The notes under the pieces were generated by a model, which saw only the letters and a program-made list of their open reading frames with translations, was not told the origin of the DNA and made no database searches. 43,534 nt of DNA from a virus (taxonomy: Duplodnaviria > Caudoviricetes): IMG/VR virus record IMGVR_UViG_3300022670_000308, positions 1-43,534 of that record; one strand, given 5' to 3'. Positions 445 to 41,265 of the stretch are shown in pieces. Made by a program: the position numbers and the translations under genes. How positions within the stretch are numbered: the first letter of the stretch is position 1; each line of letters opens with the position of its first letter.

Positions 445-657
445 TTAATTGCCTTGGTCTATATAATATTTTGGTTGTGGGTCCATTGGTTCTGACAGGT
501 GATCAGGGTTTGCTACATCACGCCATCCCATATCATCAAGCCATCCGATATAAATACCATTAATAGGGCACCTTAACAGCACATTCATTGGTGATGTTTT
601 ATCATCGTAACTTGATATACAATTCCACTTTAATAATTCGATCTTGCCTAATATCAT
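445..657 (-). CDS. Hypothetical protein (weakly DUF551-like) between terL and portal
   Basis: 70-aa ORF coupled to the terL stop; W...VLL...Y.G...W pattern. Confidence 0.55.
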   Translation of the reverse strand: MILGKIELLKWNCISSYDDKTSPMNVLLRCPINGIYIGWLDDMGWRDVANPDHLSEPMDPQPKYYIDQGN

Positions 658-2288
658 CAGTACCCCATCACACCAACGTCGTTAAAATCATCGCATTCAT
701 CGTCAAAATCTTCACTTGAGTTTACCACGTATCCGCCTACAAACCCAAGGGCCATGTATTGCTCAGCGTCGGCAGGGTGAGAGTATTTGTTTTTGTCTGG
801 CTTATCTTTAAATTTATCCTCTCCTGATACTTGCATCCGCTTGTATTGATAGCCACCGATTTTTCCTTTTCTAATCATAGGGCATTTACGGCTAACCAGA
901 TAACCAGGCTCGCCATCGACTAGTTTGATTATGTATGAGTTAACGGCATCTATACGCTTTGTCGGGTCGTTGGTTGGCGCTGACTCAGTCTCAAATCCCA
1001 GGTTTAGCGACTGGATAATGTCACCGTCTTCGTTGTCATCAATATAATCATCGTTAAGGATACCCATTGCGCTTTTGGCTTCTGCTTCGCCGCGACCTTT
1101 ACCAGCAGGATCGATATAACTGAACGCAACGTCGATGCCGTAAAAATTTCGCTGAAGGAATGGCTTGACTATGTCCCGGGCAAACTGCCTAACTCCCATA
1201 TCCTCACTAACCAACTCGGCAATCACTCGTAACTGGCCACGCTTAGTTTGCTGGCCAATGATGCACGAAGGAGTTAATCCGCCATCCCAACCAAGGCCAA
1301 TAGGTAAATCCTCGATAACACCTAGTGGTTTTTCAGGACAGTGTAAACGGTCATTGTATTGTGGGTAGACAGGCTTACCATCTTTAATGGTGCCGTAGTT
1401 ACCCATAACCATAACGTTTATGTGATCATCAGTATTACCGGCTAGCATGTCGCGATAGTATTTGTACCCACCTGGCAGGAATTTGATATTCTCTGCCTTT
1501 GGGTTGTTAATGTATTCGTCACCGTTTTTGATGAATGGCGATGGCCCACGAAAGAAACCGAATATTTCTTTAATTGCCCGCTTGGCTTCGGGTGAGTTAT
1601 TGGTACGCAAGTGACCATCCTCTGCCAGTTGATACCACCAGTGATCATCTTCTGGCGGGTTGGTATCCATCAACAATGCTTTGCGTGTGCAAGGTTTGGT
1701 TTTCTCTGTTCCGTCGGCGTTTAATGATACATTCCCGTCGGCGTCATATTCGCGTGGGGCTTTGTATGTTAGTTTACCTTGCTTGTATACGTCCTGATAT
1801 CCATCAATCTCAGAAGGGTACCGGCCTATTCTCTCCCTGGCGCCCTTGACTACGGCATAAGGTAATTCGCGGCTTTCATTCATGAATACGCCGGTAACCT
1901 CTAATGACAGGAGTTTTTTAACATCATCGGGCCTATCTAGGGCAAGGAATATAAACTTAGCCTCTACCCTTGTTCCGTCGGCTAATGGGTATGCCATGTT
2001 GCCGCGCATTGGCTTTAAGGTTACGCCGCACACATCAGGCGGGATCCATTGGACGAATGTTTGCAGGGTTGTGGTTTCTAGCATGTCGTAAGTGTTACGA
2101 ACTATTGCCCATTTGGTTTTGCGTATACCTTCGCTGTTTGGCTCTTGCAACACTGCTAGTCTGTGCATTTCGTTTATGCATGTCACTGACTTACCGTTAC
2201 CAACTGGGCCCAAGAAGCCGCGCACAACCTTATCGCATGCGTGAAACTTTGCGCCGGTTGTTGATGCTATGTAGTTAATTGTTGTCAT
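657..2288 (-). CDS. terL: Terminase large subunit
   Basis: Walker A GPVGNGKS, Walker B VFMNE, motif III DTNPP, nuclease motifs LGWDGG, YIDPAG and YSHPADAEQY. Confidence 0.95.
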   Translation of the reverse strand: MTTINYIASTTGAKFHACDKVVRGFLGPVGNGKSVTCINEMHRLAVLQEPNSEGIRKTKWAIVRNTYDMLETTTLQTFVQWIPPDVCGVTLKPMRGNMAYPLADGTRVEAKFIFLALDRPDDVKKLLSLEVTGVFMNESRELPYAVVKGARERIGRYPSEIDGYQDVYKQGKLTYKAPREYDADGNVSLNADGTEKTKPCTRKALLMDTNPPEDDHWWYQLAEDGHLRTNNSPEAKRAIKEIFGFFRGPSPFIKNGDEYINNPKAENIKFLPGGYKYYRDMLAGNTDDHINVMVMGNYGTIKDGKPVYPQYNDRLHCPEKPLGVIEDLPIGLGWDGGLTPSCIIGQQTKRGQLRVIAELVSEDMGVRQFARDIVKPFLQRNFYGIDVAFSYIDPAGKGRGEAEAKSAMGILNDDYIDDNEDGDIIQSLNLGFETESAPTNDPTKRIDAVNSYIIKLVDGEPGYLVSRKCPMIRKGKIGGYQYKRMQVSGEDKFKDKPDKNKYSHPADAEQYMALGFVGGYVVNSSEDFDDECDDFNDVGVMGY

Positions 2289-4557: not shown

Positions 4558-4999
4558 TTAATCTTCTATAAACGCATTACTATCAATATCAAATACCCAA
4601 ACCTTGCCGCCTGAGTTGAAGTCTTTAGTTATTGCGTACTCTACTGCCTCCCTGGCTGACTTACCAAAGTCTAAAGCTGCCATAGCAAAATCACCACCTG
4701 ACCCAATGCCCTGGTTAAATTGCATCAAACAGCTACGAAACCCACCTTCATCTATGGTTGTAATGTAAACTGCCCTGTCGTCAATAAATAAACCTACGTT
4801 ATCCAGTCCCTCGCTAGCCGATTCGAGCTCCTTAAAATTATTCATAAAGGTTTCCGTCTCGCCTGCCCTGCCCGCCAAGAACCATTTTAAACCATCCTTT
4901 TCCATGTGTTTTATTGCGCTATCAGTTAATATCATCCATCCATTACTTGTTCTGCTATCGAAGGCTATTTGTCTTATGGCAATAAACTATTGTTGTCAT
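4558..4999 (-). pseudogene. Frameshifted Ntn-hydrolase (HslV/proteasome-beta-like), paralog of 6573..7040
   Basis: ATG at 4999 reads MTTIVYCHK and shifts frame near 4972 into QIAFDSR...GSGGDFAMAALDFG...AVEYAITKD. Confidence 0.75.
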
Positions 5000-6572: not shown

Positions 6573-7040
6573 TTACTCATTAGTTATAAATTTAGCGGTA
6601 GCGATATCGTAAACATGGACCTTTCCGCCAGAATAGCAATCCTTGGTTATCGCATATTCAACAGCTTCTTTTGCTGTGCAGCCAAAATCTAGCGCGGCCA
6701 ACGCCCAACTATCACCGCTCCCTTGTGCGTAATTATGGTCAGTTATACATTCTGCATAAGTATTATCACTGTCTTTTATTGCCATATAAACACCGCCAAC
6801 ACAATCGCCCTCAGTAATTACAAATATGCATGATACGTCCATATTTTCATTAGCTGAAGTCAGTGGCTTATAGTGTTTTATGAAAGTATCTGCATCGCCA
6901 ACCCTGCCAGAAATAAACCAAAGTTTATCACCTACCTGTCTATATTTTATAGATTCATCATCAATTATAGTTCCGCTGATTGTGCTGCGGCTATCACATG
7001 CTATTTGTTTGTTCTTATGATCATAAACTATTGTTGTCAT
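6573..7040 (-). CDS. Ntn-hydrolase, HslV/proteasome-beta-like peptidase
   Basis: N-terminal (M)TTIV, ACDSR, GSG and D.YSGG motifs. Confidence 0.8.
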   Translation of the reverse strand: MTTIVYDHKNKQIACDSRSTISGTIIDDESIKYRQVGDKLWFISGRVGDADTFIKHYKPLTSANENMDVSCIFVITEGDCVGGVYMAIKDSDNTYAECITDHNYAQGSGDSWALAALDFGCTAKEAVEYAITKDCYSGGKVHVYDIATAKFITNE

Positions 7041-7729: not shown

Positions 7730-8155
7730 TTAATCTTCTTCATCAACCCAATCATCAGGATCAACAAGGTTTGTGTATTTTTCTATTTTTCCATCGCCGC
7801 CGACATTAAAAATTATATAGTCACCATATCCGATGTCACCATGACACAACCCATTAGGCACATAGTTATTATCAATTGAAGCAAGGATATCCATATTCTT
7901 ATCTAATAAATAATAACTGCCTGTATCGCAAATCTTAAAATAAAACTTAGCGACCATGTCATCTGGCCAAGCAACAACAGTACCATTGTCTATGTCAATC
8001 ACGGGTGCCCAGAAATCACCACACCTAAAAGGCACTTTAGATCCTGACTCGTCAATTTTCCCGTTTATTTCTGCACCAGACCAGCGACGAACATTTGCAG
8101 AAACTCTTAGGAATCTAGCTTCGCATTCTTTTTTTTCTGTTAATTCTATTTTCAT
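7730..8155 (-). CDS. Hypothetical phage protein
   Basis: 141-aa ORF with RBS, directly downstream of ncRNA copy 1. Confidence 0.75.
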   Translation of the reverse strand: MKIELTEKKECEARFLRVSANVRRWSGAEINGKIDESGSKVPFRCGDFWAPVIDIDNGTVVAWPDDMVAKFYFKICDTGSYYLLDKNMDILASIDNNYVPNGLCHGDIGYGDYIIFNVGGDGKIEKYTNLVDPDDWVDEED

Positions 8156-8190
8156 TGTTGAACCCTTAAATTTATTGAATAGTTATCATA

Positions 8191-8417
8191 TGACCGTTAC
8201 TTCAAGGAGGCAGTCCCTTTAATAATCTCTTGCTCAGTAATGCATAACAGTAATCAGTTAGCCTATTTACTCCTTGTTGGTGGCTCAGACCAATATACCT
8301 TGAAGAACGATCTGTTTATCCGCGGTCAAACGTAATCATGCATTAATTTGTACGATATTTGCTAATTTAAACTCAGCTGGTTTGCGGTTGTTTTACGATA
8401 ATGCCGGGAATATCGGC
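8191..8417 (-). ncRNA. Unidentified structured RNA, copy 1
   Basis: Block-wise homology with 15551-15780, frame-breaking indels and compensatory substitutions. Confidence 0.75.
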
Positions 8418-8426
8418 AGTTTGATA

Positions 8427-8546
8427 AGTCTGTTTAGTTGAATGAGTTAGCTGGATAACCTTTACCAAGGTTAGAAGCCGTGGTTTCAACGGATTAAAGG
8501 CTGACGCCAACATCTATTTTCTACTAACTCATTCACTAAACAGACT
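8427..8546 (-). ncRNA. Stem-closed RNA module (23-bp stem with two internal hairpins)
   Basis: Inverted repeat 8427-8450 / 8524-8546. Confidence 0.5.
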
Positions 8547-8558
8547 GTTAGTGTGTAT

Positions 8559-8666
8559 TGGTCTGAGCACTGGGACTCGAACCCAGACGGTAAGCTTGTC
8601 AATTGCTGCCTACCAAGCCAACGGTTGCGACCCGTACACTGCGGCTACCAATTACGCCATACTCAG
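8559..8666 (-). tRNA. Atypical 108-nt tRNA-like RNA (apparent anticodon CGC, extended anticodon arm, long variable arm)
   Basis: Acceptor CTGAGTA/TGCTCAG plus A-CCA; D arm GCG-TAATTGGTAGC-CGC; T arm CTGGG-TTCGAGT-CCCAG. Confidence 0.75.
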
Positions 8667-8766
8667 AACAATACACACTAGAGGGCTGTTGAAAGGGGTT
8701 GTGCCTGGCGGTTACTTCTAAACCGCAGTTTTTTGTAATATTATAAGCTACGCACATTACAAGCAC

Positions 8767-8910
8767 AAAAAAAGGCTAATTGTATAAAGCCCTAAACATT
8801 TCAGGATGGTAGAAAACGGTGGAGTTTTTAAACCCTACGCGCCTAAGACCTTATACAAATAACCTTTAATGTTTTCTACCGTTTCAACAGTCTCCACAAA
8901 CTGCATTTTA
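8767..8910 (-). promoter_or_regulatory. Structured leader/attenuator A ending in a U-tract terminator
   Basis: TAAAAT -10; 5' GTGGAG and GGTAGAAAAC are complementary to the loop of the downstream long hairpin, which is followed by T7. Confidence 0.6.
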
Positions 8911-8935
8911 CCCCTGTATCTTAGCTTATATGGTG

Positions 8936-9124
8936 CTAAGATTCAAGTTTAACCCGATTGTTCCATGCATCTACCGCTTCCTTCTCAGGTTTATCAAACC
9001 CAATACACGGACCATCTGCCTCACAATCATTACAAGTAACCCATCCGTTTGAACCTCCTGAGTCACCACCTATAGATACGCGTGCTTCACCACCACAAAA
9101 AGGACATGATTTTAACTTGCTCAT
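8936..9124 (-). CDS. lar: Lar family restriction-alleviation protein
   Basis: LKSCPFCGGEA...CNDCEA.GP...AVDAWNNR signature. Confidence 0.85.
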   Translation of the reverse strand: MSKLKSCPFCGGEARVSIGGDSGGSNGWVTCNDCEADGPCIGFDKPEKEAVDAWNNRVKLES

Positions 9125-9156
9125 AACTCACCCTTAATTAATTGATTTGCATGTAA

Positions 9157-9360
9157 CTAATCGATGTAAGATTTAGCAACTAACTCACACTCATTGCCCT
9201 GGTTATCGTAAAATTTAATAAATCCGGTTTTAGTTGCCCTTACGCTAAACTTAGCCTTTTGAGTTTCCACCGAAATAATCACAGCGCCTTTTTTATCTTC
9301 GCAAGTTCGTGTCACAGATATGGCGACGAAATTAAATCCAAACTCTGTTGTTTTACTCAT
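9157..9360 (-). CDS. Hypothetical protein
   Basis: ORF with AGGTGAG RBS. Confidence 0.6.
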   Translation of the reverse strand: MSKTTEFGFNFVAISVTRTCEDKKGAVIISVETQKAKFSVRATKTGFIKFYDNQGNECELVAKSYID

Positions 9361-9568
9361 GATCTCACCTGTTTAACCCGTAACTGACCAGCGTTAATTC
9401 ATCGAATTAAAAACACATAATCCTTAATATCTGTTTTTATCCAGCCAACAAACTTACCGCGGTAAACCTCTAATTGCTGATCCTTTTCAATCGCTTTTTT
9501 TAGTTTTGGAAATGAATTAATCATGTTGTTACCTTGTTTAGTCGTTATTTCTAACGACTGCTTGCTGG

Positions 9569-9763
9569 TTAATATAGATTGTCAGCATGTTTCTCAGCCA
9601 ATTGTTTAGCTTTACCTACCTGATCTAAATTATCAACACTACTTATAGATAGTAGCTCTTGAATCTCCTTAAATTCAGTTTCAAAGAAGTTAATTACATC
9701 TGTCAATTTGTCATGCTGTTCGTCTTCAAACATATCTAAAATATCTTGCCTTTTCATTGCCAT
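9569..9763 (-). CDS. Hypothetical protein
   Basis: Helical acidic ORF with AAGGA RBS. Confidence 0.6.
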   Translation of the reverse strand: MAMKRQDILDMFEDEQHDKLTDVINFFETEFKEIQELLSISSVDNLDQVGKAKQLAEKHADNLY

Positions 9764-9777
9764 TCCTTTTTTTATTA

Positions 9778-9910
9778 CAGTTTAAATTGTTGACGCCTGT
9801 TTGGTGCGAGATATTCACCCCGCCGCTAGAAACACAAATGAAATATTTGTTAGTTGGGTTCGCGGCGCTTTTCCTCGTTGAGTTGTCTTAGGCGCCAACA
9901 ATTTAAACTG
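9778..9910 (-). ncRNA. Multibranched stem-closed intergenic RNA module
   Basis: 21-bp inverted repeat 9778-9798 / 9890-9910 (one G-U on the minus strand) with inner stems. Confidence 0.5.
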
Positions 9911-9939
9911 CTGTTGTTTGCCGGTTGCCCGGCGTTAGA

Positions 9940-10647
9940 TTAATAGTTAATTGTCGCTTTGGGCAGTACGCCCTTGGCCAGTAGGTTAACAACCTTACGC
10001 CCATGCTCATCACTCAAGCCATGTTCAACAAGAACGCTAAGTATTGCATTGTGTGCATCCTTTTGGTTTTGTGCATCTGCTGCACGATGTGCATTTTCAA
10101 GCTCAAGCTTCTGTCGCTCGTCTTCCTGGCGTTGAATTTCTTGGTTCTTGGCGCGCTCTGCTGCTTGATCCTCCCTTGCTTGCTGTTCTGTCTTTAGAGT
10201 TTCAGACTCAACCTTTGCGTCCAATGCTCTTTTGTCAAATTCGGAATCAAATTTATCATTCATCAGCAATGCAAATTCGTGATCAGCTTCAAGCTTTACG
10301 GTATCCTCAATGGCTTTCTTTCGCGCCTTTTCTTCAGCCAACACCTTTGCTCGCTCTGTGTTGTATTCGTCAATCAATAGCGTAAATGGCTTGTTTGCAG
10401 CGACCAACCGATCAGTTATAGACTTGGCTTCGTTACTAACATCGCTTTTGTATTTAGCTGACTTGTCTATGCGCGCACGGTCGACCTTTTTTATTAGATC
10501 GCTTATCTTCTTTGATCCGTCCTTCACGTACTTTCGTTCAGGTGCGTTATTCATATCGACATAAAGCCCTTTGTAACTGGCCGCTTCAACTTCCAGTACT
10601 GAAAGGTGATCTTCTGTCGTTAAATCTTTAAATAGTACAACTTCCAT
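9940..10647 (-). CDS. Coiled-coil early protein next to the recombinase
   Basis: E/K/A/R-rich helical protein coupled to the SSAP gene, as in lambdoid recombination regions. Confidence 0.7.
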   Translation of the reverse strand: MEVVLFKDLTTEDHLSVLEVEAASYKGLYVDMNNAPERKYVKDGSKKISDLIKKVDRARIDKSAKYKSDVSNEAKSITDRLVAANKPFTLLIDEYNTERAKVLAEEKARKKAIEDTVKLEADHEFALLMNDKFDSEFDKRALDAKVESETLKTEQQAREDQAAERAKNQEIQRQEDERQKLELENAHRAADAQNQKDAHNAILSVLVEHGLSDEHGRKVVNLLAKGVLPKATINY

Positions 10648-11210
10648 TAGTAACCCTCTTTGATAAATAATTGTATTTTTGTTTTGTAAACCGAGTCCGT
10701 TATTTGGTCCAGGATTTTCACATCTTCCTTACCAGCATTAATCCAGGTCATATCCGTATCATTTGGTGCTGACTTATTGAATTCATCATTCATCATTTGA
10801 ACGTATTTATGATCATCAAATAACCCCATGAATACATCAGCATTAAATCCAAGCTTACTTAATGCCTTTGTCAGCGCGTCAGTTTCTACCTTTTTGGCAA
10901 AGTCGGCATCTGGCTTAGTCTGCGCTCCATCTTTGTATGCGCTAATTGATGACGTTATTGGAAACTCACCGTTAGGAAAGTAAAACACGCCATTAAAAAC
11001 AACTATTCCAGTCTTTTCTAGCATGCTGTAATCAAATTCTGCGACCTTAAAACCCCACTTTGAACCATAGGATCCAAACTGTTCAGTAGCATTCTTAATT
11101 TGCTGCTGTGGAGCTATGGCAGTTATCTTATTTCCTCTGACGTTGGCGGATTTTGTGTGAGCCGGGTTTGTCTTTTCGACCTTGTTCCACAACTCTAAGT
11201 TATTTGACAT
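10647..11210 (-). CDS. Sak/Rad52-like single-strand annealing protein
   Basis: ATEQFGSYGSKWG and KKVETDALTKALSKLGFNADVFMG motifs. Confidence 0.75.
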   Translation of the reverse strand: MSNNLELWNKVEKTNPAHTKSANVRGNKITAIAPQQQIKNATEQFGSYGSKWGFKVAEFDYSMLEKTGIVVFNGVFYFPNGEFPITSSISAYKDGAQTKPDADFAKKVETDALTKALSKLGFNADVFMGLFDDHKYVQMMNDEFNKSAPNDTDMTWINAGKEDVKILDQITDSVYKTKIQLFIKEGY

Positions 11211-11347
11211 CTAAATGATCCAACTCTTGTGATTTAAGCCATTCAATCGCGTAATGTTCCGGTGAGGTTAACTCGTCACCTTTAAACTCTTTGTGAACCT
11301 TATCCTCTTTACCGTTTGAGTCGTCAAAGATTGTTATTACTATCGAT

Positions 11348-11695
11348 CTACCTTTCATGATTTTCTACCCCCCTTGCTTGCTCTTGCTCATGCGCCCTTG
11401 GTGCTGTGTAAACATCATTAGCATGAGTCCCGCCCAATGTTTCTCCTGACATGTACCTGAGTACAGATTCAAGACCGTTTAACATTTGCATTAGCTGAAA
11501 TGAGACATTAATAAATGCAAACAACTTGAAGTGGTCATATTTATTAGTTAAATCCAGAAGTCTTAAATCACCAGTTAAACGACCTTGGCATTCTTTGACG
11601 TCAACTATGGCAGTCTCGCAATCTTCCTTGCTTGCAAATGTAGGAATATTTGGAGCCATCCACGTTGGTGTTAAATTGTACTTTATCTTGCCCAT
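11348..11695 (-). CDS. Hypothetical protein
   Basis: ORF in the leftward early operon. Confidence 0.6.
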   Translation of the reverse strand: MGKIKYNLTPTWMAPNIPTFASKEDCETAIVDVKECQGRLTGDLRLLDLTNKYDHFKLFAFINVSFQLMQMLNGLESVLRYMSGETLGGTHANDVYTAPRAHEQEQARGVENHER

Positions 11696-11700
11696 ACCGC

Positions 11701-11955
11701 TTACCCCTTTACCCTATATTTAAACTCGTCAAACTGTTCTTTTGTCAATTCAAGAACAACGTTAAAATCTTCTGTTGTGCAACTTACTGCGTGAGTATTA
11801 AAACCAAGCGCTTCAGGATTTACTTTATATGTAGTAATTTCAAGGCAACGAAGAACACCTAAAAAAATACTCCAAGCAGTAGCGCCTTCATTTCGACTCA
11901 AACCCATCATAAAAACGTCTAACTCGTTAAATTTATGGAATTTACTTACGTTCAT
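11701..11955 (-). CDS. Hypothetical protein
   Basis: ORF in the leftward early operon. Confidence 0.6.
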   Translation of the reverse strand: MNVSKFHKFNELDVFMMGLSRNEGATAWSIFLGVLRCLEITTYKVNPEALGFNTHAVSCTTEDFNVVLELTKEQFDEFKYRVKG

Positions 11956-12173
11956 AATTAACCCTTTCTATTTGATAGGCACCCACGCCCACACTGATTT
12001 AATATTCTGCAACAAAGGCTAGCTTTCAATTGATTATTGCAAGTGAAGCCGGAAACCTCGACTAGCTTACCGTCACGCATAACCATTTCATAAACGTTCG
12101 GCTTTCCTGTTTTGCTATAGTAACGATTCATGATGCTGCTCCGTTGTTGCTCTACTACTGACTAAACCCCAAC

Positions 12174-12467
12174 CTAGGTGATTAGTGACTGTTTTTCCAG
12201 ACGTAAATAATCACTTACGTATTGATCTGCCCAGTCTGACGCGTTACCGGCGGCGGAGTGACACTTGTTATTGTGATGAATGGCTGAGTAGAGGGCAGAT
12301 TTAGCTGCTTGGCTAGCAGATCTCAACTGATCACTATGGATGATTGAGAACGAACAAGTAGCTTTAAAAGAGTTTTCTTTAAGCTGCTCGACACTTACGC
12401 TGGTTTTCTCATTTAGCCACTTTATAACCAGAGATACAGTTTGGCTTTCCGTTAGTTTATCTGTCAT
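12174..12467 (-). CDS. Hypothetical protein
   Basis: ORF with purine-rich RBS. Confidence 0.6.
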   Translation of the reverse strand: MTDKLTESQTVSLVIKWLNEKTSVSVEQLKENSFKATCSFSIIHSDQLRSASQAAKSALYSAIHHNNKCHSAAGNASDWADQYVSDYLRLEKQSLIT

Positions 12468-12551
12468 TTTTCTTCTCTTTAGTTACTGCGTTGTTAGCGC
12501 CCTTGTACTGGCTAACCCGCAATCAAGCGGGTCGGTTATGGCATGTTATTA

Positions 12552-12731
12552 TTAACTATTCTTTGCGTTATACACCCGTATATACTTCCCTTTTGACATT
12601 GAAACATACTTACCTAACTTTAAAAGACGAGCAGTTTTTACTTGTTTGATTTTTCTTGCTGGCTGATTTTTGTTTGATAATGTGATTGCGAATGATAAAA
12701 GCCCTTGAGCAATATTTTTTTCGTAAGTCAT
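12552..12731 (-). CDS. 59-aa basic protein, first gene of the leftward operon
   Basis: MTYEKNIAQG...ARKIKQVKTARLLK...NAKNS; downstream of a TTGCAC-N17-TAATAT promoter-like site. Confidence 0.55.
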   Translation of the reverse strand: MTYEKNIAQGLLSFAITLSNKNQPARKIKQVKTARLLKLGKYVSMSKGKYIRVYNAKNS

Positions 12732-12739
12732 TTCGTTAA

Positions 12740-13030
12740 TCTCTCTGGTTGTTTAGTTGCTGCGTTTCGATGAGTTTATATTAATTGATACATTGAGATT
12801 GTGCAAGTATATTTGCATATTTATTTAATGCATTTGTTTATGCCCCTTTTACTTGCTTTATATAGGTGTTTAATTTATTATTATGGCTCTTGTGAATGGT
12901 TATATTAAATTGCACTGGCAATACCAGTAAGTAAATCAACTGAGGATATAGAAATGTAAACAAGGACTAAAGACCCTACCAACAAACTGCTTAATTGCGG
13001 CTTTTTGGGTATTAAATATAAATAAGGTGT
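12740..13030. promoter_or_regulatory. Divergent early control region
   Basis: AT-rich gap between divergent operons with sigma70-like boxes, a minigene and a hairpin. Confidence 0.65.
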
Positions 13031-13034
13031 GAAT

Positions 13035-13214
13035 ATGTCAGAAAAAGTTAAGAGCGTTAATTTACGGGTTAGCATGGATACAAAGGAAAAGCTTGTTGCT
13101 CTATCCAAGGTTAGAAAGAAAGCTGAAAGGCTGGACGCATCACAGAAAAACATTATCAAGGGGCTAGTCGATGCTGCACATAAAAAAGAGGTCGAGAATG
13201 CTAAATCTATTTAA
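13035..13214 (+). CDS. Putative ribbon-helix-helix DNA-binding protein
   Basis: KSVNLRVSMDTKEKLVALS...SQKNIIKGLV strand-helix-helix pattern. Confidence 0.55.
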   Translation: MSEKVKSVNLRVSMDTKEKLVALSKVRKKAERLDASQKNIIKGLVDAAHKKEVENAKSI

Positions 13215-13301
13215 TAAGCACAAGAACAACTTATACATGGGCTTTGTATTTATTATTGTTTTATGCGCCGAGTCTTTCGTTAATTTATTGCAAGGGGCGC
13301 T

Positions 13302-13598
13302 GTGATGAGCAAGTTAACAGACAATCAGATAATAGAAACCATAAAAGCTTGTTCTGGGGTTCACTCAATCGCTTGGGCAAAGGAAACAAATTGCACTGAC
13401 GATCAGGTTTTTTGTGAGCATAACGGAACATCCACAGGTAAAATTTCCAACGCGTTTGATTTAGATATAAACAATACCCGAAAGATACTAAACAAGCTAG
13501 CTGAACGAGGACTGATACGAAAAAGCAAGGATAATGGCGGCAAACAATGTTTGTGGTGGCCTGTTGGGTATTTGGCCGAACTTAAAGGGGGTTTGTGA
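13302..13598 (+). CDS. Winged-helix-like protein
   Basis: STGKISNAFDLDINNTRKILNKLAERGLIRK. Confidence 0.6.
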   Translation: MMSKLTDNQIIETIKACSGVHSIAWAKETNCTDDQVFCEHNGTSTGKISNAFDLDINNTRKILNKLAERGLIRKSKDNGGKQCLWWPVGYLAELKGGL

Positions 13599-14014
13599 TG
13601 AGCGCTCTTGTATACACAGGACAAGTGTTAGAATTTACATACCCGTTTCATGATCAGTTCGTTGATATGTGGCAGGGCAAAAAGCAAACAATGCTTACGC
13701 CTGGTTGCCATAAATCAGAAGAGGATGACGGGAGCGGATACGGAACATCAATATACTGGACGGCAAATTGTGAAGGTAAAATTGTTTTTGAAGTTTTATC
13801 AATAGCCGAAATGCCCGGTAAATATATGGACCGTGTAATTGTTAAAAAACATTACTTAAAGCCTTGCGGTGAAAAATTAAGTCGGGGCGATGTAGTTATG
13901 ATGACCGATGGCAAATTGAAACGGTATATAGATGATCAAACAGTCTTTCCTTGGGAGTATGAAGTTGATGAAAGTTTCACGGCAGATAAGCCCACCTATC
14001 AATCACACTTTTAA
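13595..14014 (+). CDS. Hypothetical protein
   Basis: Coupled 139-aa ORF. Confidence 0.65.
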   Translation: MMSALVYTGQVLEFTYPFHDQFVDMWQGKKQTMLTPGCHKSEEDDGSGYGTSIYWTANCEGKIVFEVLSIAEMPGKYMDRVIVKKHYLKPCGEKLSRGDVVMMTDGKLKRYIDDQTVFPWEYEVDESFTADKPTYQSHF

Positions 14015-14038
14015 TTGCAGTTAAGGAGTAACAAAATA

Positions 14039-14239
14039 ATGAAACATAACATAGTTGAATTTGACGGTTCAAATTACCAAGCACAGCCAGTTAATCGGGA
14101 TGTTCATTGCTGCCATGATTGTGATTTTTATGACCACCAAGTCGAATCATGCATTAATCGTCGTGCACCATGCATGCCGCGTGAACGAGAAGACGGCACA
14201 GATGTTATTTACAAGATAATACCAGTTAAGGAATTATAA
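14039..14239 (+). CDS. Small Cys-rich protein
   Basis: AAGGAG RBS; CCHDCDF...C...C...REDG. Confidence 0.6.
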   Translation: MKHNIVEFDGSNYQAQPVNRDVHCCHDCDFYDHQVESCINRRAPCMPREREDGTDVIYKIIPVKEL

Positions 14240-14547
14240 TGACCAACATGATTGATGGCTTAAAAGCAATTGTTAGAAATAACGAATACAATCCCCTGTC
14301 ATCAAAAGAGAAAACAAAACGGTTACTTTCTTATGACGCAGAAAAAAGAAGAGGGGCAATACTGGATATAATTTCATCGTCATTCAAATCCTGCAAGGAA
14401 ATAAGCGAGGAATGTGATTTTGCATTATGCACCATAAATAAAGATTTACGTTATATGCTTGATAACAATATCGTTGAACATAAAATTATGAAGGTTAAAA
14501 TGAAAATAAACCGTAACATAGACTTTTACAAGAAAATTAATCGTTAA
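14239..14547 (+). CDS. HTH-like protein
   Basis: SCKEISEECDFALCTINKDLRYM HTH pattern. Confidence 0.6.
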   Translation: MTNMIDGLKAIVRNNEYNPLSSKEKTKRLLSYDAEKRRGAILDIISSSFKSCKEISEECDFALCTINKDLRYMLDNNIVEHKIMKVKMKINRNIDFYKKINR

Positions 14548-14568
14548 ATATAATAACCTGGGTAAAAC

Positions 14569-14594
14569 AAAGCCAGTCATCACGCTGGCTTTTT
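14569..14594. terminator. Intrinsic terminator between convergent operons
   Basis: AAAGCCAG-N8-CTGGCTTTTT. Confidence 0.75.
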
Positions 14595-14602
14595 AATGCG
14601 CT

Positions 14603-14836
14603 CTAAACGCCAATGTAAGCATAGTGAATAAAGCAAGCTATGCATCCTATAAACGTTATGACTTTACAGGCAGTAATGAAACGACAAGCTTGTTTATACG
14701 CTTCAAATAACTCGTTGTAACTTTGCACCCTCACAAATCTAAATGAACCCGCGTCTTTTTTTGTGCATCGATCCATATTGTCGGCGCTTGTTGGTCGCCA
14801 TACTTCTATATTATCGAATTCGTCTGTTGTTTTCAT
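14603..14836 (-). CDS. Hypothetical protein with C-terminal TM
   Basis: GAGG RBS; hydrophobic C-terminus. Confidence 0.55.
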   Translation of the reverse strand: MKTTDEFDNIEVWRPTSADNMDRCTKKDAGSFRFVRVQSYNELFEAYKQACRFITACKVITFIGCIACFIHYAYIGV

Positions 14837-14858
14837 TTTTGTTATACCCTCTTAACTG

Positions 14859-15215
14859 TTATAAATAAATGTGGCGACCAACCAATGAATGTCTAATTTT
14901 TTTCATTGATTCAATAAGAGTAAAAGCATCTTCGCTATTGTTAAAGCTGACCTCTCGATTACCCTTGGCGCATACCCTTTTATCGTTAACGGAAGATATT
15001 GACCATTCATACATAGGGATAGTGTAGTAATCGTTGATATGGTGGATTATTGCCAGGTTTACCCCGGATTTTTCGCAATCTGTTACATAACCAAGTATTT
15101 CTGTAACGCTACCTATATCTGCAGCCTGGCATATATGAGTAAAATTTGCATTGTGCATCTGCTTAACCAGAGACTTTGTTAACTTTCTCTTTGTTGTGAT
15201 TATTTCTATCTTCAT
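14859..15215 (-). CDS. Hypothetical protein
   Basis: 118-aa ORF with RBS. Confidence 0.65.
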   Translation of the reverse strand: MKIEIITTKRKLTKSLVKQMHNANFTHICQAADIGSVTEILGYVTDCEKSGVNLAIIHHINDYYTIPMYEWSISSVNDKRVCAKGNREVSFNNSEDAFTLIESMKKIRHSLVGRHIYL

Positions 15216-15232
15216 TGTTCTTACCCCTGTTA

Positions 15233-15511
15233 TTAAATAGCGATTATTGACAACACTGTCCAGTCATCTTGTAGGCCATAACTACCCGTTGGTAATTTAT
15301 AAGTAACCCTTACTCGCAAATCAAACCCCGTGTAAAGCAATGGCTTACCTGCTGCCCGTTGCAGTTTCCTGACGCTATTAACGCTAACAGTGTAGCCAGA
15401 AAGCTCCCTTGAATTATCGTCAAGAGTTTCTATTACGTGGCTTATCAAGTCACCCTCATTTATATTCATCCACTTCAATTCTTCATCTGAAACTGTTATT
15501 TCAATATTCAT
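15233..15511 (-). CDS. Hypothetical protein
   Basis: Likely start MNIEITV at 15511, just downstream of ncRNA copy 2. Confidence 0.6.
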   Translation of the reverse strand: MNIEITVSDEELKWMNINEGDLISHVIETLDDNSRELSGYTVSVNSVRKLQRAAGKPLLYTGFDLRVRVTYKLPTGSYGLQDDWTVLSIIAI

Positions 15512-15550
15512 CTGTAAACTCTTAATTAATTTTAAAAATAGGTCTCTTAT

Positions 15551-15780
15551 TGACCGTAACTGCAAGGATGGAGTCCCTAACCAGTAATCTCATATTCAAT
15601 AATACATAACAGTAATCAAGCATCAATTCACATCCAATGTTGGCAGATCAAACCATATACCTTGCAGAAAACTTGTTTATCGCGGTCTAACGTCATTATG
15701 TATTAAGATAAAACTTATTTGCTACTTTAAAAACTTAGCTAGTTATGCGGTTTGTTTACGATAGCGCCGGGAATATCGGC
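15551..15780 (-). ncRNA. Unidentified structured RNA, copy 2
   Basis: Homologous to 8191-8417 with covarying helices. Confidence 0.75.
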
Positions 15781-15804
15781 TATTTGGAGAGGAATTAAGG
15801 CAAT

Positions 15805-15920
15805 AAAAAAGGTAAAGTGAGTATCTCTGTTCGAAGCGGATTAATTAGATTAACCCCAGAAATACTTACTTTACCTTATCAATTATCTGGGCTTCGACTC
15901 CAAACAACAAGGTTATTATC
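15805..15920 (-). promoter_or_regulatory. Structured leader/attenuator B ending in a U-tract terminator
   Basis: 5' hairpin loop TCGAAGC is complementary to GCTTCGA in the loop of the stem 15809-15824 / 15862-15877, which is followed by T6. Confidence 0.6.
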
Positions 15921-15926
15921 TGTTAT

Positions 15927-16511
15927 TTAGGCAGAAGTTGCAAGCTGATTTCCCACCTTGACGTTATATGCTTTCTTCTTTCCATCCGGTGTATCTGAAA
16001 AATATAACTGTTCAGCAAATTGGTTTCCAGCTACCGATACGATAACCATCCAATGATTAGGCAACCCACAATCATCACCGGAATACTCCTGATAGTTAAC
16101 GCTTCTAACTTCGGTTATTTGGCCGTCTTTGAATTTAGGCTGTTGACTGTTAAAGCACATAAGTGCAACCTCTGCTTTAGCCTCTTTACCGGCTGCGCGA
16201 TCATATTCTTCCTTACCATCGTTTTCGGGGAAAAATATATCAATGCATTTTCCGTTAAATTCAGCCTTGTAAATCCAACCACTACCAACCGGTTTTGTAA
16301 GCCCTATCAATTCAAGCGCGCCAATTAATCCGTCAACGTCTATCCTAGGCACCTGTCTAATCCTGTAAAACAATATATCAAGGTCTTTGCGTCGGCCAAC
16401 CTTATACAGCACACCGCCAGTTAATGCTACGTGGCAACCGTACAGTGGCGCTATTGCTTCTATTTTGACTATTAACGCTATTGCGTCATCCATACCCCAA
16501 GTGTTCATCAT
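15927..16511 (-). CDS. Pol-beta-superfamily nucleotidyltransferase-like protein with extra C-terminal domain
   Basis: hhGG-x8-DLD plus a third Asp in CIDIF. Confidence 0.6.
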   Translation of the reverse strand: MMNTWGMDDAIALIVKIEAIAPLYGCHVALTGGVLYKVGRRKDLDILFYRIRQVPRIDVDGLIGALELIGLTKPVGSGWIYKAEFNGKCIDIFFPENDGKEEYDRAAGKEAKAEVALMCFNSQQPKFKDGQITEVRSVNYQEYSGDDCGLPNHWMVIVSVAGNQFAEQLYFSDTPDGKKKAYNVKVGNQLATSA

Positions 16512-19036: not shown

Positions 19037-19405
19037 ATGAAATTAGATGTTAACGAAATAGAAATAAACGGCGAAGTGTATATTAAGAAATCAGGCATTA
19101 AGAGCGTCGACCAACCTAAAGGTGACTACGTTGTTATTCGCACATATAGCGCAGGCGTTCATGCAGGATACCTAAAATCAAGAGAAGGAAAAGAGGTTGT
19201 TCTAACTAATTCGCGCCGCCTATGGTACTGGAAAGGTGCAGCTTCACTATCTCAGGTAGCTGGTTCTGGAATAGCAAATATAGACGCTTGTAAATTCCCC
19301 GCTGCAATTGCTGAAATAACACTATTAGAAGTTATTGAAGTGATCCCTTGCACTGATAATGCCAAGAAAATAATAGAAGGTGCAAAAGAATGGATCGAAA
19401 AATAA
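19037..19405 (+). CDS. Conserved phage protein (DUF6948-like)
   Basis: YVVIRTYSAGVHAG...SRRLWYWKGAASLSQVA...EVIEVIPC. Confidence 0.75.
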   Translation: MKLDVNEIEINGEVYIKKSGIKSVDQPKGDYVVIRTYSAGVHAGYLKSREGKEVVLTNSRRLWYWKGAASLSQVAGSGIANIDACKFPAAIAEITLLEVIEVIPCTDNAKKIIEGAKEWIEK

Positions 19406-19650
19406 GCGACCGAGATAAAAGAGGCGATGGCTCTGGCTCTGGCTCTGGCTATGGCTCTGGCTCTGGCTATGGCTCTGGCTCTGGCTATGGCTCTGGCTCT
19501 GGCTATGGCTCTGGCTATGGCTATGGCTCTGGCGATGGCTATGGCTCTGGCTCTGGCTATGGCTCTGGCTCTGGCGATGGCTCTGGCTCTGGCTCTGGCG
19601 ATGGCTCTGGCTCTGGCTCTGGCTCTGGCTATGGCTCTGGCTCTGGCTAA
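19390..19650 (+). CDS. Gly-rich (Gly-X)n protein
   Basis: 75 residues of G-S/G-Y/G-D after a short charged leader. Confidence 0.65.
   Translation: MDRKISDRDKRGDGSGSGSGYGSGSGYGSGSGYGSGSGYGSGYGYGSGDGYGSGSGYGSGSGDGSGSGSGDGSGSGSGSGYGSGSG
19423..19647 (+). repeat. Hexanucleotide tandem array (GGCTCT/GGCTAT/GGCGAT, 37.5 units)
   Basis: Directly visible in the sequence. Confidence 0.95.
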
Positions 19651-19718
19651 CCAGCAATAACTAATTAATTAAATCATGCGACCTATAGGGTCGCAATAAA
19701 CAAGGCAGAGTAATAATA

Positions 19719-20898: not shown

Positions 20899-20993
20899 CC
20901 TCGTTAGTGGTCAGTCGTTACTGAATGGTTTTGCGCCAATCAAGGTAACGAATCTTGACTTTCACCCGCTAAAGCTAGGCGCAACTTATTGTA
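20899..20993 (-). ncRNA. C4-like cloverleaf leader RNA with downstream antisense target sites
   Basis: TTGCGCC/GGCGCAA closing stem; loop TCGTTAC is complementary to two TAACGA sites, one on the RBS; extended -10 TGaTACAAT. Confidence 0.6.
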
Positions 20994-40719: not shown

Positions 40720-41265
40720 TTACTTATCCTCACTTGTGATGTATTGATTAACAGCTTGCTCACTGATAACCCCAATTATGTCATCGTCATTAACATATCG
40801 CAGACCGCCGAATTTTTCGTTATAGTCTACCATCCTTGTTTTTTTACCGTCGTACCTCCCGCTTAATTCAACGATATCACCTACTTTTACACCCCATTCT
40901 TCAGGGCCTCTGCAATTAGCGAAACCTTTATAGGCTATTGGTCCGAATGCTAGTATCTTAGCGATGGCACCAGCTCCCTTTTCGCGCTTTTCTTCGTTTC
41001 CTGTCATGAGTGCAATACCACCAGCAGACATAACATGTACCTCGACCTGCTCAACTAGAACAAAGTGGCCTAATGGTTTGGTTGGTGTTGGAAATAAGTT
41101 AAGTCCGGCATCTAAAGCGAACTCATGGATCGATTTTAGCATTTCTTTACCCGCTTCATCGGTCTTTAAAAGCCGGTTTTTTGGTGTTTCGTTATCTCCA
41201 TTCATAACAGCCGCTCGATCTTTTGTAAGTTTTTCAATATTAGCTATAGCATCATTTGGGTTCAT
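40720..41265 (-). CDS. groES: GroES-like co-chaperonin with N-terminal extension
   Basis: KPLGHFVLV...SAGGIAL...ILAFGP...VKVGDIV...VNDDDIIGV. Confidence 0.85.
   Translation of the reverse strand: MNPNDAIANIEKLTKDRAAVMNGDNETPKNRLLKTDEAGKEMLKSIHEFALDAGLNLFPTPTKPLGHFVLVEQVEVHVMSAGGIALMTGNEEKREKGAGAIAKILAFGPIAYKGFANCRGPEEWGVKVGDIVELSGRYDGKKTRMVDYNEKFGGLRYVNDDDIIGVISEQAVNQYITSEDK

Follow-up and report, generated by a model that had tools for sequence, protein, structure and literature searches.

Two intergenic regions of the phage genome IMGVR_UViG_3300022670_000308 (Duplodnaviria, Caudoviricetes), whose full stretch of 43,534 nt is referred to here as the window, carry copies of a predicted structured RNA. 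Comparison with homologs strongly supports the notion that this RNA represents an apparently undescribed superfamily, placed within a previously unnoticed, predicted operon composed only of RNA. Both copies lie on the minus strand, copy 1 with its core at 8191–8346 and copy 2 at 15551–15706 (156 nt in each case), as assigned from covariation and from a covariance model that scored 118 and 142 bits, respectively, and found no third copy in the window. The original prediction, made from the window sequence alone, had proposed a conserved, compactly folded phage RNA of no known family, and this description held: covariation was strong over 70 homologous sequences and no Rfam family was found at either copy. 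Its boundaries (~230 nt) had to be redrawn, since the core measures ~160 nt, the 70 nt on its 5′ side constitute a separate module, and both belong to a longer unit free of open reading frames (ORFs). As for its role, we tentatively favor a stand-alone accessory RNA that binds or decoys a host protein, likely in trans.

Fold and covariation of the core RNA

The ordered sequence blocks previously noticed in the two regions were all found in place, and a BLAST search with copy 2 on the phage's own genome aligned it to copy 1 with 76% identity (E 4.9e-37). To collect homologs, viral, metagenome and genome collections were searched in six pattern scans, the output of which was filtered with nhmmer, yielding at least 129 filtered matches and at least 73 distinct sequences. 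The raw scans were rich in false loci (5 of the 77 loci from three scans had no profile match), which nhmmer removed, and, because a pattern retrieves sequences bearing its own motifs, part of the invariance of these motifs stems from the search itself. After five truncated or unparsed sequences, an ambiguous one (L247) and a duplicate were discarded from the 77 rows of the alignment, 70 remained.

In a G-test over 8,778 column pairs, for which 60 simulations of a tree-based null gave a maximum of 67, 13 pairs lay above this maximum. One is an artefact of neighboring columns; the other 12 are base pairs, two each in helix A, helix P1, helix D, helix E and the second pseudoknot, one closing the small hairpin, and one in the 2-bp helix B, for which 10 compensatory events were counted. 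Because the register of P1 had been set by pairing in this alignment, the count was redone on a plain, structure-blind MAFFT alignment of the same rows. There, 93.7% of 2,833 cells pair, compared with 31–41% in slid controls, both sides have changed in 29 of 41 pairs, and 487 cells are doubly changed vs 152 in shuffles, with none of 500 shuffles reaching the real count. On the minus strand, G-U cells outnumber A-C cells 103 to 16 at 26 paired positions (a single pair contributes 55 of the G-U cells), in agreement with the strand initially proposed. In contrast to the alignment, folding of the single copies proved no better than that of shuffled sequences (z of −1.5 and −0.1); being uninformative, it leaves the case to covariation, for which homologs are required.

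The one-strand G-U excess and the surplus of doubly changed cells speak against a DNA-level site, a reading considered extremely improbable even though the RNA is known here from sequence alone and the contigs from RNA runs described below speak neither for nor against a transcript. Its variant, a neutral or simple DNA duplication, which the original prediction had kept as an alternative, is not supported either, given that the closest relatives of each window copy are RNAs of other phages, the partner ranking 14th and 6th of 69. Two copies per genome occur in three phages (the window and two represented by phage-sized contigs, L016 with L119 and L268 with L269), and in none of them is the partner the nearest relative, which suggests separate acquisition.

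The core comprises nine helices. In 5′ to 3′ order, its elements are A, AC-N, UUU, P1, an invariant G, N′-G, AUAAA, D, E, the hairpin UGG-loop-CCA, the small hairpin ACA-NGGAN-UGU, the 3′ strand of the second pseudoknot, D′, AU(U)AC, A′, a variable region, E′, WAA, P1′ and the AU-rich tail. According to the comparison, helices A, B and D form a three-way junction, B builds an H-type pseudoknot with P1, the 3′ strand is held by E and P1, and a second pseudoknot involves a loop. Covariation in every helix, together with about 45 positions conserved at 97% or more, points to a tertiary fold. The helices first proposed, namely B (8298–8304/8201–8207), C (8336–8345/8238–8247) and A (GACC/GGUC) in the lettering of that time, proved real, as they covary across the 70 homologs; six of the nine, including the second pseudoknot, had been missed. 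The outer G-C pair of that helix A is probably wrong: its C covaries with a G of the internal loop (changing to C-G twice and to U-A once, 70 of 70 rows being paired), while the supposed partner G is invariant. This long-range single pair, between the loop G and the C before P1′, changes in three rows and is not significant by itself (E about 6).

In copy 1, helix A spans 8345–8336/8249–8238 and is followed by helix B (C8332–G8321 and G8331–C8322) with its UUU loop, P1 (8328–8324/8195–8191), the invariant G8323 and AUAAA. Helix D (8314–8311/8258–8255) and helix E (8304–8298/8207–8201) come next, then the hairpin UGG 8292–8290/CCA 8280–8278 and the AGGA hairpin (8277–8269); the single pair is G8286–C8196 and the second pseudoknot 8285–8282/8263–8260. 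Copy 2 has the same helices, with A at 15705–15695/15611–15600, P1 at 15687–15684/15555–15552, D at 15675–15672/15620–15617, E at 15666–15660/15567–15561, the second pseudoknot at 15648–15646/15624–15622 and the single pair G15649–C15556. Both copies are type I, as opposed to the type II form described below.

On the 5′ side, comparison with homologs delimits an exchangeable module at 8350–8417 in copy 1 (a GCCGA hairpin or an alternative pseudoknot, an A-rich linker and a small AGCU hairpin) and at 15710–15780 in copy 2, both on the minus strand. This GCCGA-type module, ~70 nt long, could fold either as a hairpin or as a pseudoknot. The 5′ hairpin had been described as invariant, which is true between the two window copies and not across the homologs, 47 of 65 having this type and the other 18 not matching; other module types stand before both type I and type II cores.

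Type II RNA, the exchangeable slot and the predicted RNA operon

When the RNA of the Vibrio breoganii phage 1.131.O was used as a type I query, sibling phages were found to share only its flanks. The type II RNA, of ~210 nt, keeps the outer scaffold of type I: helix A, AC-N/N′-G, P1, the invariant G, AUAAA, helices D (all 4 pairs in each of 16 rows) and E, UAA and the tail. The two types share about 15 invariant nucleotides, the unpaired invariant G among them, which cluster at one junction and the pseudoknot. Applied to nine type II loci, the type I model gave E<0.001 in four and 0.02–0.04 in three, these E-values being rough, and with filters off one of seven type II loci (L320) kept a strong type I score. 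A scan with the tail retrieved nine more type II loci among 12, some of them minimal. A divergent minimal member with another upstream context, possibly from another host group, lies at ~600–830 (+) of L334.

Inside this scaffold, type II carries a direct repeat. Over 9–12 nt it is exact in 10 of the 16 rows, while the remaining six have an interrupted version. One 5′ strand is able to pair with either repeat copy, more strongly with the distal one (−16 to −24 kcal/mol) than with the local one (−7.5 to −10 kcal/mol; computed for 11 of 16 rows). Since the repeat sequence differs between clades, a local-to-distal strand exchange appears to be conserved in type II; type I is compatible with a smaller exchange, as 61–70 of 70 rows are paired at four positions, with no compensatory change there. 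The same repeat would permit domain swapping, and the core could be, in the manner of ROOL or GOLLD, an RNA-only molecule of structural or oligomeric nature, in which the type II repeat and the loop pseudoknot pair between molecules. The niche is the same, since bioRxiv 10.1101/2024.12.08.627333 places ROOL and GOLLD in phages near tRNAs and describes them as multi-pseudoknotted and non-essential. However, the core is a quarter of their size and lacks an Rfam match, and raiA, of similar size, is a monomer according to the same text; this reading is regarded as quite unlikely.

The small hairpin with the conserved loop reads ANGGAN in type I and CGACAA in type II. ANANGGA is found in 67 of 70 type I sequences, ACANGGANGU itself in 22 and a loop longer by one base in 24, and the closing pair covaries (6 tree events). 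This recalls the consensus for CsrA obtained by SELEX, CANGGAYG in a hexaloop, as given in bioRxiv 10.1101/2020.08.24.265819, and type I specifically could be a CsrA/RsmA-binding RNA. Nevertheless, there is one invariant GGA instead of the many sites of CsrB-type sponges, both window copies deviate from the motif, and an alternative pairing of GGAU with the invariant AUCC is conceivable (a single compensatory case, in copy 1). Moreover, the motif is not kept in type II, so CsrA binding is not the function that both types share. The proposal is considered very unlikely.

The favored reading, that of an accessory RNA, draws on the content of the slot. Sibling V. breoganii phages hold there a type I RNA, a type II RNA or a T5orf172-domain gene, and, judging by these sequences, such exchange is the pattern of an accessory locus. 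In phage 1.168.O, the T5orf172-domain gene occupies the slot from promoter to tail, and L327 has an ORF ending at the tail in which an HNH-like motif was read by eye. The RNA is therefore dispensable in some lineages, and the sequences suggest that free-standing endonucleases target the RNA slot.

BLAST searches with copy 2 matched the V. breoganii phage 1.131.O and its relatives, two Pseudoalteromonas phages (BS5 and HS2) and the Vibrio K30 group; those with copy 1 gave only three short chance matches in phages. Cultured phage–host pairs with the RNA comprise Pseudoalteromonas phages HS2, BS5 and HS1 and the V. breoganii phages. In genome collections, six of nine stretches were true matches, all on contigs of metagenome-assembled genomes of at most 41 kb, and the plasmid collection gave no match, from which it seems that the RNA is mainly carried by non-integrated phages. 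Side observations at these loci are a 37-aa "hypothetical protein" annotated in GenBank over the 5′ part of the RNA in the Vibrio K30 group (L004:3895–4008), which is probably spurious, and T5orf172-domain or HNH genes that replace the RNA locus or directly follow the RNA (L321:305–805, L327, L317, L318, L004 and L269).

Upstream of the RNA, the DNA is predicted to fold into arrays of long stems, and a typical ORF-free unit consists of a −10 box, a leader, a long-stem cassette complementary to the leader, optional tRNAs, the RNA and the AU-rich tail. Under a strict rule, a long-stem cassette with a terminal U tract was found in 46 of the 64 loci with enough flank. A −10 hexamer precedes the leader in 41 of these 46 (shuffles: mean 10.4, maximum 18), and 38 have a perfect leader–cassette complement of at least 7 nt, in many sequence variants (shuffle p≤0.05 in 25 of 46). 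Conversely, when the cassette alone was scanned for, the RNA followed it in 7 of 9 loci. The core anchor lies 115–454 nt beyond the end of the promoter-proximal cassette (46 loci).

Copy 1 ends an ORF-free stretch of ~740 nt on the minus strand, with four cassettes, one of them tRNA-like. Its promoter and leader are placed at 8868–8925, with candidate −10 hexamers at 8923–8918 or 8910–8905 (proposed here, not called by the promoter scan), a leader hairpin with loop "a" at ~8898–8892, and a segment "b" at 8880–8871. The long-stem cassette with a U-tract end (8765–8867) complements the leader through its interior 8817–8808 over 10 perfect nt (0 of 200 shuffles). A second stem-enclosed cassette is predicted at 8701–8766, its flanks recurring in homologs, followed by the tRNA-like element with CCA within a 29-bp stem (8539–8690; Rfam tRNA 29.5 bits, E 0.03; none called by ARAGORN at default) and by a fourth predicted cassette (8430–8543), a ~20-bp stem around a ~75-nt insert. 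Upstream of copy 2 there are only a promoter, a leader and one cassette, also on the minus strand: a sigma70-like promoter TTGCAA-17-GATAAT (15943–15915) and leader within 15878–15943, with a segment at 15897–15891, and a long-stem cassette with U tract (15803–15877) whose bulge 15837–15831 complements the leader over 7 nt (shuffle p 0.11). The tRNA-like element of copy 1 has an acceptor stem, CCA, and D and T arms, the anticodon arm being replaced by extra hairpins; L205 and L177 contain similar 3′ ends, and the element is possibly a tRNA decoy. A different structured RNA stands behind the same cassette in L282 (~1130–1330, minus strand) and L283 (~1020–1230, minus strand). It starts with an ANGGAN-capped stem, shows compensatory changes between both copies, and has no detectable homology to the core RNA and no Rfam family above the cut-off; only these two were found in IMG/VR by pattern.

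The arrangement at the end of such arrays, together with the ~15 invariant nucleotides that both types keep at one junction and pseudoknot, could also be explained by a new class of self-cleaving or processing ribozyme that parts the RNA operon from the downstream mRNA, its active site lying in the invariant junction nucleotides. Type II, in addition, keeps two alternative partners for one strand, as is found in splicing ribozymes. Among the 62 loci examined, a tRNA was called upstream in 11, and the position of the core at the end of tRNA-bearing arrays recalls that of theta ribozymes (PMC10879173). However, these tRNAs end at least 116 nt before the core anchor and not within 5 nt of a cleavage site, no Rfam ribozyme was matched in the window and 32 loci, and neither window operon contained an HDV-like fold (hepatitis delta virus; own descriptor) or the hammerhead core word. 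The HDV-like fold is a nested double pseudoknot, P1-P2-P3-P1.1, with a catalytic C, whereas covariation yields a different topology for the core. A ribozyme is, in our judgement, unlikely.

Downstream genes, function and phage setting

The conserved AU-rich tail covers 8160–8190 in copy 1, followed by the ribosome-binding site of the ORF 8155–7730 (141 aa, no family), and 15516–15550 in copy 2, followed by the ORF 15511–15233 (92 aa; weak DUF3850 match, below cut-off), all on the minus strand. The spacing to the ORF, originally given as 35–40 nt, measures 36 and 40 nt. The products had been called unrelated, and indeed the next proteins share no function across the family loci. Both ORFs and the next one nevertheless begin alike (MKIELTE at 8155, MNIEITV at 15511 and MKIEIIT at 15215, minus strand), as if recombination joints reached the first codons. 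Of 58 next genes scanned, 13 are virion-structural (adaptors, head closure, scaffold), two HNH, one a methylase, six unknown PHROGs and 36 without family, with no function common to them. Of 69 loci, 20 have an extended −10 element directly behind the RNA, compared with a mean of 1.2 and a maximum of 5 in shuffles, one of the 20 being inside an ORF; with a new promoter at this point, the RNA serves no fixed gene. A riboswitch, one of the roles first listed, is consequently disfavored, there being no shared downstream gene.

A role in cis, as a put- or EAR-like antiterminator or as a translation or stability leader for the genes behind the RNA, was also weighed. Copy 1 heads ~26 kb of genes for lysis, packaging and the virion, all in one orientation, in a phage where a Q-like protein was not found, and the two copies per genome in three phages fit such a role. 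On the other hand, the new promoter behind the RNA argues against it, copy 2 precedes three small ORFs only, before a convergent operon, and the whole unit is missing from a sibling phage. The distance of the core from the promoter-proximal cassette, unlike the promoter-adjacent position of put, disfavors the put-like role once suggested. Cis action is therefore held to be improbable, to much the same degree as a ribozyme.

The stand-alone accessory RNA is preferred because of the elaborate fold, the predicted promoter of its own, the tRNA neighbors, the lack of a fixed cis target and the exchange among siblings. In this model, each copy would be transcribed by the host RNA polymerase from the −10 box as the last member of a protein-free operon, whose control might proceed by leader–cassette pairing, by analogy with P4 seqA/CI. 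The core may be cut from the long transcript at the flanking stems, undergoing a local-to-distal strand exchange as its 3′ end is made. It would then bind or decoy a host protein in the form of a compact particle that resists nucleases, with the small conserved-loop hairpin (ANGGAN or CGACAA) as a possible recognition element. Counter-defense would be the most plausible role in infection; phage tRNAs able to cancel a host defense are described in bioRxiv 10.1101/2023.03.15.532788.

Several observations weigh against this model. Context is the whole basis of the counter-defense role. No binding partner emerged, and the Pfam and PHROGs scans revealed no protein gene that accompanies the RNA. The ANGGA hairpin is missing at the equivalent type II position, ANGGA anywhere occurring in 5 of 16. 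An ORF start led by a Shine–Dalgarno sequence lies within 60 nt in 35 of 70 loci, which is equally consistent with a cis role; the rule used missed the ORF of copy 2 at 40 nt. Specificity of the leader–cassette pairing is weak, as the cognate duplex was the best in 6 of 46 loci and among the top three in 11 when duplex energies of cognate and foreign pairs were compared. Finally, an HS2-like locus (L055) is present in nineteen RNA runs, of which X1, X5, X8 and X14 each gave one contig across it at flat depth (one of 37.6 kb), indicating neither expression nor its absence; no joints were seen in the contigs of these four runs, which drop rare forms.

With comparable reserve, the data can be put in wider terms, with this RNA as the first member of a new superfamily of phage RNA machines in which a common pseudoknotted scaffold with swappable interiors and a local-to-distal flip sits in an antisense-controlled, all-RNA island of marine phages and works as a new natural ribozyme class or an RNA-based anti-defense factor. 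To our knowledge, few bacterial RNAs have so many helices and pseudoknots, and most of those with a known function are ribozymes or riboswitches. The core is small enough for probing and cryo-electron microscopy and is present in cultured phage–host pairs, with sibling phages carrying type I, type II or no RNA as natural controls, and the role of phage non-coding RNA islands thus becomes directly testable. A protein-free operon with its own leader-antisense head is left blank, or filled with spurious ORFs, by annotation pipelines.

The window itself is a complete phage record (43.4 kb, direct terminal repeats at its ends). PHROGs matches include head-closure and adaptor genes forming a set like that of P22, those for the portal, capsid, small terminase and endolysin, and recombination and replication genes, while no integrase, CI repressor or Q family was matched in PHROGs (82 window ORFs) or Pfam (65 ORFs). 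On the minus strand, a 543-aa ORF in the large-terminase position (657–2288) has no PHROG or Pfam match and a faint NCBIfam terminase match (E 0.007), two ORFs resembling HslV-family peptidases (4558–4935 and 6573–7040) have a common 29-nt upstream repeat (D17), and a GroES-like ORF (40720–41265) adjoins the portal gene. An Rfam int-alpA RNA (20916–20985, minus strand, above the gathering score) lies upstream of an HNH gene, and an 18-bp tandem repeat (19387–19695) has overlapping GSGYGS-rich and MALALA-rich frames.

Comparison with known RNAs and phage systems

Rfam 15, searched over the window at E≤1, returned the int-alpA RNA and a weak tRNA, both elsewhere than at the two copies; over 32 related loci (E≤5 or 10) only tRNAs scored above gathering. 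No description of the RNA was found in the literature searched, most subscription papers being outside its coverage, and supplements may bear on novelty. The main text of the HS2 transcriptome paper contains no mention of non-coding, intergenic or ncRNA. Six 11-mers of the RNA were absent from three supplement files of the viral csRNA catalogue of Fremin and Kyrpides 2023 (PMC10690425), the alignments lying outside these files; as its entries measure 29–151 nt, a fragment of the RNA could be listed.

Among regulatory RNAs, likenesses to the hammerhead, the hairpin ribozyme, group I, RNase P and SAM-II were dropped for wrong helix order or missing residues, the sequence scans covering the HDV descriptor and the hammerhead word. 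The put antiterminator RNA of HK022 is ~65 nt long, promoter-adjacent and present in two copies per genome upstream of operons; the present RNA resembles it in the two copies per genome and their place upstream of operons, and differs in a core of 160 nt, far from its promoter and often followed by a new one. SAM-II, preQ1 and ToxI are H-type pseudoknots with a U-rich loop 1 and an A-rich strand, features found here as the U-rich loop 1 and the AUAAA strand after stem 1. In contrast to them, stem 2 is free in sequence, loop 3 has an insertion of ~110 nt, and there is no Rfam match or shared downstream gene. With CsrB/RsmZ sponges and CsrA sites, the likeness is one ANGGAN hairpin in type I, a single site within a complex fold that type II does not have.

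ROOL has ~600 nt. Many GOLLD RNAs exceed 800 nt and raiA has 205 nt according to bioRxiv 10.1101/2024.12.08.627333, where ROOL and GOLLD are reported near phage tRNA islands. The core RNA is, like all three, a structured, pseudoknotted RNA of obscure function, although ROOL and GOLLD are far larger, its helix order is different, and the core, found in marine gammaproteobacterial phages, matches no Rfam family. Theta ribozymes, as portrayed in PMC10879173, are pseudoknotted phage RNAs located downstream of tRNAs, with a cleavage site within 5 nt of the tRNA 3′ end; the core RNA is larger, lacks their HDV topology and is not adjacent to tRNA 3′ ends. The closest layout concerns the operon head. 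In P4 seqA/CI/seqC, phage P1 c4 and Gifsy-1 IsrK, a promoter and a leader are likewise followed by a long-stalk RNA complementary to the leader, and the processed P4 RNA pairs with upstream and downstream sites, causing termination (PMC4825925). Unlike the P4 CI and c4 loci, most loci here have no second downstream target (in a search that did not tolerate wobble, the matched word recurred exactly, in the manner of seqC, over the next 1.5 kb downstream in 6 of 46 only, with words of 6–7 nt) and there is no Rfam C4 match. The likeness to P4, P1 and Gifsy-1 thus concerns the cassette and not the core, and the payload of the operon described here consists of RNA genes rather than an antirepressor.

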